Positions 17,027 through 23,007 of a DNA stretch of 28,639 nucleotides are shown here, piece by piece (the first letter of the stretch is position 1; each line of letters begins with the position of its first letter). The DNA is taken from NCBI GenBank assembly GCA_031364845.1, contig JANLWX010000123.1, positions 1 to 28,639 on the forward strand. The letters are read 5' to 3'. The position numbers and the translations under genes were made by a program. The DNA comes from Candidatus Eiseniibacteriota bacterium (lineage in GTDB: Bacteria; Eisenbacteria; RBG-16-71-46). The notes beneath the pieces are model-generated. The model ran no database searches. It was given only the letters and a program-made list of their open reading frames with translations, and was not told the DNA's origin.

Positions 17027-19204
17027 TTGAAGACGCGTTTGATCCATTGGATCGCAACCGCCCTGGCCGCGGGGTTGACGATCGCTTCGACGACGCAGAT
17101 CGCGTCCGCGCGCAGCGGACCGAATCCTTTCCCACGAAAGGTGCTGCCCGTCACGAGCGGAGCGTCGCACGTGCCTGATACCCAGGTTTCTACCGGGATG
17201 CACGACGCGCGCCGTTCGTACGGTGCGGCACATCTTGGCCGCTCGGAACGTCCTGGCCCCCCGGCTCTCTGGGGTGATCCGCCCGGAACACCCGGCGCGG
17301 CGCTCGATGTGGGCGGCCGCGCACCCTCACAGGGTTCTTCGGACCCCGGCATGGCCACCACTCGAACCACACCCTCGCTCAACACCTCGTCCGTGATGGC
17401 TGTGCCGGTTCCGCTTCCCGCGGGAGCGGTCCAGATCGACTCGACGTACTACGATCTCCAGGACATGGGCTCGCTCGGGCAGCGCATCATCGTCGGCCCC
17501 GACGGTCGCATCCACGTCACCTGGCAGGACGATCACTGCAACTACGCCCCCGGTGGGTGCCCGCCGAATCCGTCGGCGCCCATACCCTACCCACTCCGCG
17601 GAATGGGCTACGCATTCCGTGACGCCACCGGCTGGCATTCCGTGGGCCGTGTCGAAGATCCCGATCTGCGTCAGAGCTGTTGTGCGTCGGAAGTCGCGGG
17701 CGGGTTCGGAACGATCGCACTGACGGCGAACGGCCGCGCAGTCGTTTCGCAGCACACGCGCGAAGACGGTTGCGATCTGCGCGGAAATCTCTTCGTGCAG
17801 GACGCCGTCGGCGGGGCCACGTGGACGGGTTATCTGCCGCCAATCGCGAGTCCGAGCTACCTCTTCCCGCAGGCAGCCGTGCTCCCGAACGGCTCGATGC
17901 TGATGCTCGGCGAGATCCCGATCTCGCCGCCCGACGGCTTCTACGAAGGGACAAGCGAGTTTCGCACGAGCCGGCTGGCCGCCGAGGGAACGCGCTTCGT
18001 GTGCCCGACCGGGTGGCAGATGGGGCCGTGGACCCAGATCGTCGCGCCGACCGTTTTTCGTGATGGACATGGCGCGTTCCCAACGCTTGCCGCATCGTCG
18101 AACGGCCGCGCGGGCGTGGCCGTCACCGACTTCGGCGGGAACGTGTTCCTGATCGAATCTTCGAACGGCACGTTCGCGACCGGCACCGTGACCCTGCGCA
18201 CGCTCACGAATTACAGCGACACCGCGATCATCAAGAGCGATTCGACTTCGACGCAATGGCGTCCGTACATCCACTGCCACCTCGCGTATCAGGACACGAC
18301 GCCGCACGTGGTGTGGAGCGAACTACAGGCGCGCAAGATCGGAACCGAGGTCAAGTATTTCGACTGGCGCAGTCGCATCCGCCATTGGAGTTCGACGACC
18401 GGCCTCTCGACCGTGAAGCAGGTGGCTCCCGGCGAGGCCGACACGTTCGACGACATCGACAATTATCTGGATGGACCGCTCGCGGGTTTCAACACGATCT
18501 CGGTGGACTGGCCGCAGGTCGGTTTCTCGCCCGACGGATTCGAGACCTACGTCGTGTGGTTGCGATTCACCGACTCGCAGGTCGATACGACTGCGATCGT
18601 CAAGGGTCTCGAGGGAATTCAGACCGGGACCGGCTACGGCGATATCGCCTGCAGCACTCGACGAAATGGCGCATCATGGTCCGCTCCCCAGAATCTGACT
18701 CAGACTCCGCAAACCGACGAGCGCTTCGTCTCACTCGCGACACTCAACGACCGCGGCAATGTGCGGATCGCGTTCCAGGCCTCCGCCACCAACCAGGCCG
18801 GCGTCGCGGCAGTGGGGGATCGTGGCGGTGAATGCGTCCAGGGCAACTGCCCGCCGCTCAATCTCGTACGGCGCATCGCGTTTCTCGAGCGGCATCTGAC
18901 CGCGAGCGTCGTCGCGGTCGGCGATCTGCCCGCGATCGCGGGGCCTTCGATCACGGCGGCGCCAAATCCCGCGCGCGGACCCATACGCTTTTCGATCGAC
19001 CCAGCGCGCGGCGCGCAGAATGGACGGGCGATCCTCGTGTACTCGGTCAGCGGACGGCGCGTGGCGCGGATCGCGGCCGCAGGCGGCAACGCGGTGTGGA
19101 ACGGTCGAGACGAAGCCGGCCACGCCGTTCCGAGTGGTGTCTATTTTGCCCGGTTCGAGAGCGAGCATTCGGGCTCCGGAACCAAGTTCATGCTGTTGCA
19201 CTAG
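17027..19204 (+). CDS. Large secreted beta-rich protein with C-terminal FlgD-Ig/T9SS-type-A-like domain
   Basis: TTG start 8 nt after AAGGAG; signal peptide; Pro/Gly-rich linker; C-terminus PNP..G.IRF...VYSVSGRRV...WNGRDEAG..VPSGVYFAR. Confidence 0.8.
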   Translation: MKTRLIHWIATALAAGLTIASTTQIASARSGPNPFPRKVLPVTSGASHVPDTQVSTGMHDARRSYGAAHLGRSERPGPPALWGDPPGTPGAALDVGGRAPSQGSSDPGMATTRTTPSLNTSSVMAVPVPLPAGAVQIDSTYYDLQDMGSLGQRIIVGPDGRIHVTWQDDHCNYAPGGCPPNPSAPIPYPLRGMGYAFRDATGWHSVGRVEDPDLRQSCCASEVAGGFGTIALTANGRAVVSQHTREDGCDLRGNLFVQDAVGGATWTGYLPPIASPSYLFPQAAVLPNGSMLMLGEIPISPPDGFYEGTSEFRTSRLAAEGTRFVCPTGWQMGPWTQIVAPTVFRDGHGAFPTLAASSNGRAGVAVTDFGGNVFLIESSNGTFATGTVTLRTLTNYSDTAIIKSDSTSTQWRPYIHCHLAYQDTTPHVVWSELQARKIGTEVKYFDWRSRIRHWSSTTGLSTVKQVAPGEADTFDDIDNYLDGPLAGFNTISVDWPQVGFSPDGFETYVVWLRFTDSQVDTTAIVKGLEGIQTGTGYGDIACSTRRNGASWSAPQNLTQTPQTDERFVSLATLNDRGNVRIAFQASATNQAGVAAVGDRGGECVQGNCPPLNLVRRIAFLERHLTASVVAVGDLPAIAGPSITAAPNPARGPIRFSIDPARGAQNGRAILVYSVSGRRVARIAAAGGNAVWNGRDEAGHAVPSGVYFARFESEHSGSGTKFMLLH

Positions 19205-19329
19205 CGAGCGGACGCGCGAGGCCATCGGCGTTCGATGGCTCTCGAGCGGTCGCGCGCCTTCCCCCGATTCCCCCGAGCACGGCTCGCGGCGGCGTCATCA
19301 AAAATCACCCTAGACCAGGAGTATCCCCG

Positions 19330-20133
19330 ATGACCGCCTTGCTTCCACGCTCCGCCGGATTATTCTCCGGCGCGCTGGCGACCGCTCTGCTGGTTGCCAC
19401 ACCCATTTTCGCCGCCAACTCGTTCGTTCCTGTGCGCGCGAATTCGCCTGCCCTCGGTGACAAAGAGGAGCATGTCACCGGCGGCGCGCTCGACCTGCCG
19501 TGGCTGAACGGCTTCGGCGTATCGAACAACATGCAGCCGCTGACGCTGGCGCCCGAGCATCCCGCCTACAACAACCCGTCTGGTGACCACACCGTGGCGA
19601 GCGCGACGAACTCGATCGCCCCCGACAGCGGCGGCGTCATCCTCACGGCCACGGATCCCGGCGGCGTCGCCGACTACATTTGGGAAGGCTGGGTCTTCAC
19701 CGGCGACGGCAACACGCGCCGCGGCCTCGTGGTGCGCGCCGATCCCAACAACCAGTTCACCTCGTGCTACCAGTTCGTGGTTCAGTCCGGCCTGTTCCAG
19801 ATCAACTTCCGCAGGCTCGTGAACAGCATGCCAACCACACTCGCCACCTGGTTCGCCAGCGAACTGCCGGCGGGCTCGCTGCCCCAGAACACGTGGCACC
19901 AGATGAAGGTGATCGCGGTCGGCTCGACGTTCCGCTGCTTCATCGACGGCCACGAGTTCACGTCGACTCCGATCGTCGACGCCACGCTGCCCACGGGATG
20001 GCCAGGCGTCTACAACTTCCGCTTCGATCTCGGCGGCGTTCCGTTCCTGACGGACGATCTCATCATGACCGACATCCGTAAGACGCCGGTGGCGCCTTCG
20101 ACGTGGGGCCAGGTGAAGGCGCGCTGGCGGTAG
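19330..20133 (+). CDS. Secreted protein, ConA/lectin-like (DUF1080-like) domain, C-terminal STWGxxK tail
   Basis: AGGAG SD; signal peptide; GLVVRA, NTWHQMKV.AVGS.FRCFIDG, D...PTGWPG; ends TPVAPSTWGQVKARWR. Confidence 0.78.
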   Translation: MTALLPRSAGLFSGALATALLVATPIFAANSFVPVRANSPALGDKEEHVTGGALDLPWLNGFGVSNNMQPLTLAPEHPAYNNPSGDHTVASATNSIAPDSGGVILTATDPGGVADYIWEGWVFTGDGNTRRGLVVRADPNNQFTSCYQFVVQSGLFQINFRRLVNSMPTTLATWFASELPAGSLPQNTWHQMKVIAVGSTFRCFIDGHEFTSTPIVDATLPTGWPGVYNFRFDLGGVPFLTDDLIMTDIRKTPVAPSTWGQVKARWR

Positions 20134-20161
20134 CATCTGCGCCCGCGTTCGCCCGTCGTAT

Positions 20162-20199
20162 CGCGAAGCCCGCACCTCTCCAGAGGCGCGGGCTTTGCG
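20162..20199 (+). terminator. Terminator-like hairpin after the secreted-protein genes
   Basis: CGCGAAGCCCGC-A-CCTCT / AGAGG-C-GCGGGCTTTGCG inverted repeat, about 30 nt after the stop. Confidence 0.6.
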
Positions 20200-20240
20200 C
20201 TGGCTTCCGCGCCGGCGCCCCCGCGTTCGGAACGAAACTA

Positions 20241-20270
20241 TTGACTCGCGATCCCCGGTCTCGATAGATT
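20241..20270 (+). promoter_or_regulatory. Sigma70-type promoter of the small RNA unit
   Basis: TTGACT-N18-TAGATT with A-rich upstream sequence; predicted TSS ~20276-20278. Confidence 0.65.
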
Positions 20271-20297
20271 TCTCGAACGCGGAAAGGAGGTGGTCCA

Positions 20298-20342
20298 TTG
20301 ACTGATACGCGCAATAGGATCGCGGAGGTGGCTGTCCGCTAG
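20298..20342 (+). CDS. Putative 14-aa peptide MTDTRNRIAEVAVR
   Basis: TTG 7 nt after AGGAGG; TAG stop in a hairpin loop; too short for the ORF track. Confidence 0.5.
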   Translation: MTDTRNRIAEVAVR

Positions 20343-20416
20343 GACGGCCCCGCACCTGGCCTCCAAGGCCAGCGACCTGCTGGGTCGTCCCGCGAATCCC
20401 AGCAGCTGACCGGAGT

Positions 20417-20449
20417 GGCGGGGGATGGGCGACCGTCCCCCGCCTTCTC
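20417..20449 (+). terminator. Intrinsic terminator-like hairpin closing the small RNA
   Basis: GGCGGGGGATGG-GCGA-CCGTCCCCCGCC (12-bp stem, GNRA loop) followed by TTCTC. Confidence 0.65.
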
Positions 20450-20620
20450 ATGGGCTCCCGGCTGTAACCCTCCCCGTTACGGGTGACACTTTTCGCGGTT
20501 CTCCGTGACACGTTGCGGCGAAACCAGGTCCGCACGCGGCTGCGGGAACCGTCGCCTCGCCCTTTGTCCGGCAAGCACTTGAGGCCGCGCGCTCCCCGCG
20601 ATCGCGACCGTGTCGCTGCG

Positions 20621-20636
20621 CGGCACGCCGTGTGCT
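20621..20636 (+). promoter_or_regulatory. Possible sigma54 promoter for the RnfD-like/DUF2330 genes
   Basis: CGGCACG-CCGT-GTGCT, GG-N10-GC, imperfect at -12. Confidence 0.5.
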
Positions 20637-20783
20637 TTAGCCATCCGCGGCCGTCTCCACATGGGAGGAGGCGGCCGTCCCCATCTGGCTGAGCTGAAAA
20701 GGCGCGGACTCCGAGCCCCCCTCAAAACGCTGATCGTCGTCGCGTGGAAGAACTCACGCGGCAGCGGCGTAAGGAGGGGCACG

Positions 20784-21737
20784 ATGGACATCCGACCGCA
20801 ATCCTCGTCCTGGCCCGCGCGCTTGCGCGACTCCGATCCCCGCTACTACCAGATCGGCGCCCTCTCGCTGCTGCTCACGTACGGCGTCATGGGGCTCGGG
20901 TTCGGGATCGGCGCGGCCCACGTCTTGACGGTGATCGGCGCGGCACTCGCGACGCAGTTCGCGGCCACGCGGCTCGCCCGGCTTCCGCACTTCGATCCGT
21001 TGAGTGCCCTCATCTCGGGCATCGGGCTCGCCACTCTGCTGCGCACGTCCTCGCTGTGGATCGCGGCACTGGTCGCCGTGATCGCGATCGCGAGCAAGTT
21101 CGTGTTCCGCATCGACGGGCGCCATGTGATGAACCCGACCAACGGTGCCCTGGTCCTGATGCTCGCACTCGGCGCCCCGGTGTGGATCTCGCCCGGGCAG
21201 TACGGCCACGTCACGTTCGTGGCGCTCGGGATCGCGTGCATCGGCAGCGTGGTCGTGAATCGCGCGGCGCGCAGCGACGTGACGTTCGCGTTCCTCGGCG
21301 CGTGGGCCGCCATCCTGTTCACGCGGGCACTCGTGATCGGCGAACCGCTGACGATTCCCGTGCACCGCCTGGAGAACGGGCTCTTGCTTCAGTTCGCGTT
21401 CTTCATGATCTCCGACCCGCGCACCACCCCGCGCGCACGCGCAGGTCGCATCGGGTTCGCCGTGCTGGTGGCGCTCGGCGGAGCCTTCGTTCAGTTCGGT
21501 CTGTTCCGCACCAACGGGCTGTTGTGGTCGCTCGCGCTGTGCTCGCTCGCGGTGCCGCTGATCAACCGGCTCGTGCCGGGCGAGCGCTACGAGTGGAATA
21601 CCGTCCGTCCCGCACCGGGTCACTCACCAGGAGAACCTCATGAACACGAACGCGAAACGCGCCCGGATGTTGCGGGCGACGGGGCTCGCGATGGCCGCCT
21701 GCCTGGCCATGCTGCCCGCGCCGCAATCCGCCCATAG
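20784..21737 (+). CDS. RnfD/NqrB-like (NQR2 family) membrane protein, stand-alone
   Basis: DPRYYQI, ASKF...GRHVMNPTN, FFMISDPRTTP; many TM helices; SD AAGGAGG before ATG 20784. Confidence 0.8.
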   Translation: MDIRPQSSSWPARLRDSDPRYYQIGALSLLLTYGVMGLGFGIGAAHVLTVIGAALATQFAATRLARLPHFDPLSALISGIGLATLLRTSSLWIAALVAVIAIASKFVFRIDGRHVMNPTNGALVLMLALGAPVWISPGQYGHVTFVALGIACIGSVVVNRAARSDVTFAFLGAWAAILFTRALVIGEPLTIPVHRLENGLLLQFAFFMISDPRTTPRARAGRIGFAVLVALGGAFVQFGLFRTNGLLWSLALCSLAVPLINRLVPGERYEWNTVRPAPGHSPGEPHEHERETRPDVAGDGARDGRLPGHAARAAIRP

Positions 21738-23007
21738 CTTCTGCGGATTCTACGTCGCCAAGGGCGATGCAAAGCTGTTCAACAACAGCTCGCAAGTGGT
21801 GCTCGTACGCGACGGCGATCGCACGGTGCTGACCATGATGAGCGACTACCAGGGCGACCCGAAGGAGTTCGCGGTCGTGATCCCGGTCCCGAGCGTGATC
21901 CAGAAGAGTCAGGTTCACATCGGCGATCCGGCCGTGGTCGATCATCTCGACGCGTTCTCGGCGCCGCGGTTGGTCGAGTACACCGATCCCAATCCGTGCC
22001 CGTCGGCGGACCGAAGGGTGTACGAGATGAGCATGGCGCCGGGAGCCGTCGCCCAGAGCGGCGGCCTCCACTTTCGCGGCGGCCGCAAGGGCGAGGTCAA
22101 GATCGAGGCGAGCTACACCGTCGGCGAGTACGACATCCTCATCTTGTCGGCGAAATCCAGTTCCGGGCTCGAGCGCTGGCTGATCGACAACGGCTACCGC
22201 ATTCCCGAGGGTGCGAACGCCGTGCTCGCGTCGTACCTCAAGCAGAACATGCGGTTCTTCGTGGCCAAAGTGAATCTCGCCGAGCAGCGCAAGCTCAACC
22301 TCACGAAGCTGCGCCCGATCCAGGTGGCGTTCGAATCGGCGAAGTTCGTGCTGCCGCTGCGGCTCGGCATGGTGAACTCGACCGGCACGCAGGATCTGTT
22401 CGTCTACGGCATCACGAAGCGCGGCCGCATCGAAGCGGTGAACTACCGCACCGTGAAGCTCCCGTCCGACGTCGATGTGCCCGAATACGTGAAAGACGTG
22501 TTCCCCGACTTCCATCGCGCGATGTTCGCCGAACAGTGGCGCAAGAACGGCCGCGACGTCGTGCTCACCGAGCACGCGTGGGACATGGCGTCGTGCGATC
22601 CGTGTCCTTCGGAGCCGCTCTCGCACGCGGAACTGCGCGCACTCGGCGTGTGGTGGGTGCCAGCGGACGCGCCGTATCTGTCGCAGGGCGAGACGTTCCT
22701 GACGCGCCTGCACGTGCGCTACGACCGCGCGCACTTTCCCGAGGACCTCGTGCTGCAGGAGACCGCCGACCGCGAAAACTGGCAGGCGCGCTACGTCGTC
22801 CATCATCCATATGCGGGCACCGAAGATTGCCCGGCGGTGGCCGCGTACCGCCGGCAGGTGCGTGAACGTCGCGAGAAGGAAGCGAGGAATCTCGCGGACC
22901 TGACGGGATGGCGGATCGAAGACGTTCGCACGCGGATGAGCGTGAACGACGTCTGGTCGCGGCCCGAAGAGAATCTGACGTGGTGGGAACGGTTGTGGGG
23001 GAAGTAG
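21640..23007 (+). CDS. DUF2330-family exported protein
   Basis: Signal peptide then FCGFYVA, FAVVIPVP, SAPRLVEY.DPNPC, VGEYDI.ILSA, LPLRLG, CDPC, TRLHVRY; AGGAG SD. Confidence 0.87.
   Translation: MNTNAKRARMLRATGLAMAACLAMLPAPQSAHSFCGFYVAKGDAKLFNNSSQVVLVRDGDRTVLTMMSDYQGDPKEFAVVIPVPSVIQKSQVHIGDPAVVDHLDAFSAPRLVEYTDPNPCPSADRRVYEMSMAPGAVAQSGGLHFRGGRKGEVKIEASYTVGEYDILILSAKSSSGLERWLIDNGYRIPEGANAVLASYLKQNMRFFVAKVNLAEQRKLNLTKLRPIQVAFESAKFVLPLRLGMVNSTGTQDLFVYGITKRGRIEAVNYRTVKLPSDVDVPEYVKDVFPDFHRAMFAEQWRKNGRDVVLTEHAWDMASCDPCPSEPLSHAELRALGVWWVPADAPYLSQGETFLTRLHVRYDRAHFPEDLVLQETADRENWQARYVVHHPYAGTEDCPAVAAYRRQVRERREKEARNLADLTGWRIEDVRTRMSVNDVWSRPEENLTWWERLWGK

Follow-up and report, generated by a model that had tools for sequence, protein, structure and literature searches.

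A conserved, stand-alone small RNA gene with complements of the 16S rRNA tail before both the start and the stop codon of a 14-codon reading frame

The window analysed here is a stretch of DNA of 28,639 nucleotides, and comparative evidence identifies a unit at about 20277–20450 of its forward strand as a real, conserved, stand-alone small RNA gene. The unit combines a conserved promoter, a 17-nt complement of the 16S rRNA tail, a TTG start, a 14-codon open reading frame, a covarying 3′ stem and a terminator, and it is a further example of a class already described, though one without a known job. On its RNA the ribosome is probably held both at the beginning and at the end of a very short round of translation. 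We put at about one in two the probability that this is a stand-alone, weakly translated mini-mRNA of the rre/Ms_IGR-5 type, whose function would lie in the ribosome cycle on the RNA and not in the peptide. What we add is a second Shine–Dalgarno sequence before the UAG stop, and a test in three reading frames. A preliminary description had taken the unit for an undescribed system; that view fails, because the class has been known since 2016 and two Rfam models, Ms_IGR-5 and CC2171, align here over their full length, below their cut-offs. It had also given too little weight to the TTG and 14-codon frame (20298–20342) directly after the 17-mer, and to the difference between the conserved family fold and a fold of four hairpins.

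What marks the unit as a gene of its own? The sigma-70-type promoter noticed earlier, TTGACT-N18-TAGATT, is confirmed at 20241–20270 (+); it is the sole such site in 19000–22000 (shuffle mean 0.2), and 14 of 17 homologs have it at the equivalent position. From its spacing the predicted +1 is an A at 20277 (+), 7 nt past the −10 box, where the Ms_IGR-5 model also begins; the first base of M. smegmatis IGR-5 is given as A in bioRxiv 2021.12.14.472595. At the other end an intrinsic terminator-like hairpin occupies 20417–20450 (+), with a 12-bp stem at 20417–20444 and a weak U-tract. A terminator scan did not list it; in an alignment of 16 sequences (A1) its stem is 96% paired, with two-sided changes in six of nine counted pairs, and U-runs follow it in homologs. 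On this sequence evidence the unit has the promoter and terminator of a stand-alone gene, as in the rre class. A GC-rich hairpin does lie upstream, as had been described, at 20163–20198 (+), after a gene that ends at 20133 (fold of −37.8 kcal/mol for 20151–20215); it is probably a terminator that insulates the unit. A 151-nt contig from a soil run (depth 2, run type guessed to be RNA) covers 20317–20442 plus 25 similar loose letters, and carries a 3-nt insertion in the short frame that keeps the reading frame; it shows that a close homolog exists and is not evidence of expression.

Several features of the surrounding DNA may be recorded here. The upstream frame of 433 codons (18832–20133, +) has no Pfam match and ends in what we take to be a TWGxVK-type motif, linked to secreted proteins of related uncultured phyla. 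Downstream, before RnfD-like/DUF2330 genes, stands a GGCACG-N5-TGC motif (20622–20635, +) with −24/−12 spacing that we presume to follow the sigma-54 consensus; upstream of it, at 20463–20511 (+), are a palindrome and a pair of GTGACAC repeats, all candidate activator sites. A look at four orthologous loci did not reveal this arrangement on the same strand. A group II intron fragment (RF02001, 41 bits), cut by the contig end, occupies positions 1–57 (−) of the window.

The first 16S complement, SD1 (20281–20297, +), is the 17-mer singled out in the preliminary description, and it can pair with all 17 bases of the mature 16S 3′ tail, with two G–U pairs. It is the sole site in the 4.6-Mb genome that can do so, G–U pairs allowed. 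Since only the 5′ end of this genome's 16S gene is assembled, the tails of relatives were used. A search of 61 genomes for the tail pattern gave matches in 22, and all 12 relative tails listed, four of the same family among them, read ...CUGGAUCACCUCCUUUCUA. With these tails the duplex of 17 bp and two G–U pairs is predicted at −31.0 kcal/mol; with same-family tails the complementarity reaches the start codon, over the 16–17 nt usual in rre genes. Hahn et al. (PMC5711450) cite a 12-bp helix from crystallography, which bears on whether 17 bp fit the 30S subunit.

An extended Shine–Dalgarno sequence alone is not diagnostic, because in viral contigs the extended sequence plus a start codon gave 65 matches, mostly ahead of ordinary frames; the pattern of SD1 with the second sequence, SD2, gave no match there. 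Four phage contigs place an extended Shine–Dalgarno sequence before Lys-rich frames of 11–15 residues, and three viral contigs carry rreB-type genes, probably host DNA. Another small gene with an extended Shine–Dalgarno sequence, at three loci, has a Lys/Ala-rich frame of 21–22 residues, then conserved sequence and a hairpin; a search of the window's genome for its downstream motif gave no match.

Directly behind SD1 begins the short frame itself (20298–20342, +): a TTG start and 14 codons, TDTRNRIAEVAVR after the initiator, with the TAG stop at 20340–20342. A weak start behind the Shine–Dalgarno sequence and a length of about 14–18 codons are likewise features of rre genes. Inside the frame lies SD2, GGAGGUGG (20324–20331, +), an 8-bp complement of the anti-Shine–Dalgarno sequence with a predicted duplex of −14.3 kcal/mol. 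The end of its GAGG lies 11 nt ahead of the stop; SD2 has no start codon behind it, and its position is kept in phylum and actinobacterial loci.

How constant is this arrangement? Three sets of loci, each chosen on other grounds, bear on the question. The preliminary description had looked to homologs with the extended complementarity as a check, and these are plentiful: a phylum scan on SD1 plus start codon, with SD2 and the stop outside the pattern, found it in 86 of 151 genomes, against none with a reversed pattern. This tally includes one unpublished genome that was left out of the 101 sites examined; after 15 sites inside long open frames (from the relaxed base) and one cut by a contig end were dropped, 85 true sites remained. 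All 85 have a frame of 12–17 codons in which [GA]AGG ends 10–12 nt before the stop (10 nt in 34, 11 nt in 50, 12 nt in one). Their starts are TTG (57), GTG (27) and ATG (1), and their stops UAG (81), UAA (3) and UGA (1). In a crude control set of 1408 long frames of this genome, 36 have GAGG at that distance, and the stops are UGA in 927, UAG in 366 and UAA in 115. Actinobacterial loci were chosen on SD1 and the stop context CGC-UA(G/A), not on SD2; among the matches listed, GAGG stands exactly 11 nt before the stop in 80 of 81. Metagenome loci were chosen on SD2, with the stop outside the pattern, and among the matches listed (112 unique loci) the stop falls 10–12 nt past GAGG in 108, in three frames, and is UAG in 104. 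The homologs are kin, so that these counts overstate independence.

The SD2 motif is read in three frames among the 85 phylum sites as well, and the frame changes occur in several separate clades; changes of length upstream leave the frame to the same stop intact. Since the same nucleotides are read in three frames, we conclude from the comparison that conservation applies to the nucleotides and to translation as far as this stop, and not to the peptide. The three-frame result thus directs attention to translation up to a fixed UAG behind a second Shine–Dalgarno sequence.

The RNA is also strongly structured. The fold of 20275–20455 has z = −4.46, and none of 200 shuffles is equally stable. 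Hairpin P1 (20290–20302 with 20311–20323, +) masks the start codon together with the 3′ half of SD1, while the 5′ purines of SD1 form a partly free toehold (mean unpaired probability 0.5 in this copy); in rre RNAs, too, the Shine–Dalgarno sequence and start lie mostly in a hairpin with a free 5′ seed. In A1, 91% of P1 cells are paired, with no two-sided change; 134 of 137 homologs are compatible at its sole variable pair, and its predicted pairing probability, 0.95 in this copy, reaches 0.7 or more in 14 of 16 homologs. Downstream, A1 defines a 3′ domain, P2–P4 (20327–20411, +), with pair swaps across phyla. P2 (20327–20334 with 20403–20411) hides SD2 and is 99% paired, with one U–A to A–U change. 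P3 (20337–20339 with 20392–20394) was read by eye from the alignments, its pairs uncounted; a variable arm, P4 (20343–20389), and a conserved AAUCCC loop (20395–20400) complete the domain, in which the UA of the stop codon is bulged. The first pairs of P2 (GGU/ACC) are fixed and later ones swap freely across phyla, the swapping beginning where the 16S complementarity ends; the table of P2 partners was fitted to maximise pairing and is illustrative only.

The covariation that had been called for is found: over A1 the named structure is 91.7% paired with two-sided changes in 10 of 31 pairs, none of 500 shuffles reaches this level and slid controls are 32–49% paired, the structure being scored on the same 16 sequences from which it was derived. 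The four hairpins and terminator of the preliminary description do appear in the minimum-energy fold, with the 12-bp terminator stem, but the conserved family fold differs. For this copy the family fold is computed at −90.0 against −96.2 kcal/mol for the four hairpins, and P2 has a predicted probability of 0.0, exceeding 0.5 in only eight of 16 homologs. The conflict between these models points to a switch or else to a shortcoming of the energy model. Two candidate pseudoknots with the AAUCC loop were rejected: that from the 3′ strand of P1 has no covariation and a C–A mismatch in 59 of 130, and that from the base before GAGG has no covariation. In one unassigned metagenome clade a near copy of the 16S tail follows the stop in 31 of 33 loci; it pairs with the RNA's own SD1 in both examples folded, so that masking of SD1 is a recurring theme.

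How might a ribosome pass along such an RNA? The free 5′ purines would seed pairing with the 16S tail, P1 would melt and SD1 would bind the 30S subunit very tightly, and with a TTG start initiation would be slow; such a first step has been shown for rreB. The elongating ribosome would then unzip P2–P4 and expose SD2. With UAG in the A site, SD2 would stand 8 nt (7–9) upstream of the P-site codon; the distance from SD1 to the start is 7 nt. At so start-like a distance the ribosome would be gripped again at termination: the anti-Shine–Dalgarno sequence would re-pair with SD2, and release of the mRNA at termination or recycling would be slowed, as in vitro work on other mRNAs suggests. UAG is read by RF1 only. 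The last step is the most speculative. The dwell might set the fold and turnover of the RNA and free its C-rich 3′ strand, so that the RNA, a self-limiting tether or gauge, would report on initiation and on RF1/RRF-dependent termination capacity; candidate outputs are its own turnover or the freed strand. A read-through or frameshift product was considered and rejected, no frame being consistently open for 30 codons past the stop (138, 130 and 85 of 208).

The main weakness of a model with two Shine–Dalgarno sequences is the alphaproteobacterial SD2, which is weak and variable (median −7.3 kcal/mol, three of 12 at or below −8; control −5.0, 17%); the grip at termination is therefore not universal. 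Conservation of the UA could moreover be structural and unrelated to RF1. This leads to the alternative that survives best, a possible though rather unlikely one: the same translated, 30S-binding mini-mRNA, in which the second GAGGUG is kept for RNA structure, the UA(G) is a structural bulge and only SD1 contacts the 16S rRNA. A protein or tertiary contact might require GAGGUG, or the 3′ CACC strand might need either GGUG copy. The invariant GGU/ACC pairs fit this reading, as does rreB, which does without a strong SD2; and a homologous stem sets how far SD2 lies from the stop, which could make the 10–12 nt a by-product. However, sets chosen without regard to GAGG show no variation in its unpaired GA, the pair swaps begin just at the end of the 16S complementarity, and the pseudoknot between P1 and the loop is unsupported.

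Might the product instead be the peptide of 12–19 residues, the extended Shine–Dalgarno sequence merely keeping its synthesis low? Peptide ends are alike within clades (…EVAVR, …EVAAR; …EVAR in RreB), and Hahn et al. report conservation of Rre peptides at clade level (PMC5711450). Yet the same nucleotides yield …EVAVR, …GGGCS and …RCLVR or …RWLSA in the three frames. Synonymous change is absent at the Glu codon of SD2 and almost so at the Val codon: among the actinobacterial matches listed, all 80 loci use GAG for Glu and 79 of the 80 use GTG for Val, whereas the codons that follow differ between loci. The RreB and RreR peptides are described as unstructured, and overproduction of RreB as having no effect on growth (PMC5711450). 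We regard a peptide function as improbable.

The preliminary description favoured a non-translated decoy of the 30S subunit, a hibernation RNA or a shield of the 16S 3′ end. Its broader claim of a stand-alone ribosome-binding RNA is well supported, since the genomic context is not conserved and the alphaproteobacterial counterpart rreB co-sediments with 30S subunits (PMC5711450). The 17-bp duplex at −31 kcal/mol suits a decoy, as does a single copy per genome in 44 of 59 genomes of family f1, and rreB stays on the 30S subunit after replacement of its start codon. A decoy without translation is nevertheless improbable in our judgement, because a start and an in-frame stop are retained in all 85 true phylum sites. 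In the same report rreB is far scarcer than ribosomes and its 20-fold overexpression leaves growth unaffected, which argues against bulk sequestration of 30S subunits by that RNA (PMC5711450).

Family f1 also shows how the gene is distributed. It is present in 44 of 59 relatives, always once per genome; the exact motif of SD1 plus start is absent from the searched genomes of several families, for example f17 (none of 12) and f10 (none of seven). A DNA search matched 20 of 61 genomes, 18 with the true element, and a covariance-model search 25 of 61; blanks in either are not absence, because the divergent long subtype was missed. The short subtype, as here, occurs in 11 genomes of f1 and the long one, with a 5′ extension of about 95 nt, in 34, including one of the same genus, and never both together. 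Both occur within the same genera, which suggests that one subtype replaced the other.

Neighbouring genes, which we take to be a ychF-like gene and an FMN-riboswitch-like leader, enclose the element in several relatives; in this genome such a leader lies near the end of another contig, with unrelated sequence upstream of it. That the unit is a cis-acting leader (attenuator) of the downstream gene or, as had been proposed, a guide for 16S 3′ maturation is highly improbable: the FMN-riboswitch-like leader follows in six of the 12 short-type loci listed and the ychF-like gene precedes in four, but the adjacent genes differ between loci and some are convergent, no element lies within 1.5 kb of four orthologs of the downstream RnfD-like gene, the terminator covaries, and the sequence 5′ of SD1 shows no match to pre-16S, so that the complementarity stops before the precursor sequence.

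To which known RNAs, then, is the translated mini-mRNA that we prefer related? The comparison with Rfam that had been suggested gave two full-length matches, both under cut-off: Ms_IGR-5 (RF02471) at 27.1 bits (E 0.014; cut-off 45) and CC2171 (RF01867) at 26 bits (cut-off 75). At E ≤ 0.1 the Ms_IGR-5 model has matches in 14 of the 61 genomes searched, and in 11 the match is the element, with a best score of 42.6 bits in relatives and none of the 61 over 45; three of four actinobacterial loci tested exceed the cut-off. A scan of a genome collection with SD1 and CGC-UA(G/A) gave at least 90 unique non-16S loci (25 listed matches were 16S genes), by record title 81 actinobacterial and nine alphaproteobacterial among the matches listed. 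A covariance model, R1, built from 16 homologs of the window's clade, scores 40 of 40 actinobacterial loci at 16–55 bits (77 loci scored, of several hundred) and seven rreB-type loci, which have SD1 in common by selection, at 16–32 bits; of seven controls with the same Shine–Dalgarno sequence before other frames, one scores 16 bits and six nothing. A. broomeae ATCC 49717, which appears in figure 2A of PMC5711450, has a copy that ends CGC-UAA and scores 20.6 bits on R1. Because of the Rfam and R1 scores, homology with Ms_IGR-5 is solid; homology with rreB is likely but unproven. CC2171 is probably the Rfam face of rre, because its model starts with the same 17-nt Shine–Dalgarno sequence and GUG and all four rreB/rreR-type loci tested match it over the full length, at 37–55 bits.

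Hahn et al. (PMC5711450) describe rreB as 165 nt long, with a 17-nt Shine–Dalgarno sequence, a GTG start and 14 codons, found by them only in Alphaproteobacteria, weakly translated and without an assigned function; its binding to the 30S subunit is tight and seed-dependent, and its decay depends on translation, removal of the start codon lengthening its life from 10 to 37 min. The available parts of an S. meliloti small-proteome paper (PMC10117765) and an S. aureus extended-Shine–Dalgarno paper (PMC13009471) do not mention rre. Ms_IGR-5 is expressed in M. smegmatis (bioRxiv 2021.12.14.472595) and S. lividans (PMC8079986), and CC2171 is expressed with function unassigned (bioRxiv 2022.01.24.477521). 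A literature search that covered few subscription journals found no paper noting the 16S complement or short frame of Ms_IGR-5, linking it to rre or describing a second Shine–Dalgarno sequence. The accessible parts of PMC2602773 and PMC8388888 gave no support for identifying the Streptomyces copy with scr4389.

Described in 2016, the rre genes still have no assigned function, and catalogues list Ms_IGR-5 among uncharacterised non-coding RNAs. Should they form one class, a single-copy gene would be common to Actinomycetota, Alphaproteobacteria and uncultured phyla, and testable in M. smegmatis or Streptomyces; SD2 before UAG, with the three-frame result, gives the basis for a sharp experiment. 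A bolder proposal, which we hold tentatively and consider unlikely, is that rreB/rreR/CC2171, Ms_IGR-5 and the window RNA are one old, cross-phylum, translation-gated family, and that its non-alphaproteobacterial branch is a two-anchor ribosome trap sensing termination or recycling. A second Shine–Dalgarno sequence, unmasked by elongation, would then hold the ribosome at the UAG read by RF1, delaying recycling, and the signal would pass through the freed C-rich 3′ strand or the RNA's own cleavage. If real, a natural RNA using a Shine–Dalgarno sequence at a stop codon to control or sense the recycling of ribosomes would be a new regulatory device.

How does the window RNA compare with these systems? 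With rreB/rreR it shares a length of about 165–175 nt, its own promoter and terminator in a context that is not conserved, a 17-nt 16S complement up to a weak start, a 14-codon frame, and a Shine–Dalgarno sequence and start mostly within a hairpin. It differs in its two G–U wobbles, where rreB is perfectly Watson–Crick, in TTG for GTG, in an SD2 that is strong here and weak or variable in rreB, in the strand that sequesters SD1, and in a peptide unrelated except for its last residues. The match to CC2171, a Caulobacter sRNA, owes its score to the 5′ end and the terminator. SD1, SD2, CGC-UAG, the AAUCC loop, P2, P3 and the terminator are common to Ms_IGR-5 and the window RNA; the differences are the score below the 45-bit cut-off, a start that follows SD1 after 1 nt and not 2–7, and the filing of Ms_IGR-5 as a non-coding sRNA. 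The mechanistic parallel is the work of Chen et al. (PMC5737721), in which a Shine–Dalgarno sequence 9–14 nt ahead of a stop makes release of the mRNA in vitro 50-fold slower, and one before the stop raises ribosome occupancy at leader-peptide stops. Those effects were shown on model mRNAs and cis attenuators, whereas the window RNA stands alone, with SD2 3 nt farther from the stop than in their construct and hidden in a stem; common to both is a Shine–Dalgarno sequence at a start-like distance before the P-site codon, which in their system slows release of mRNA and tRNA alike.
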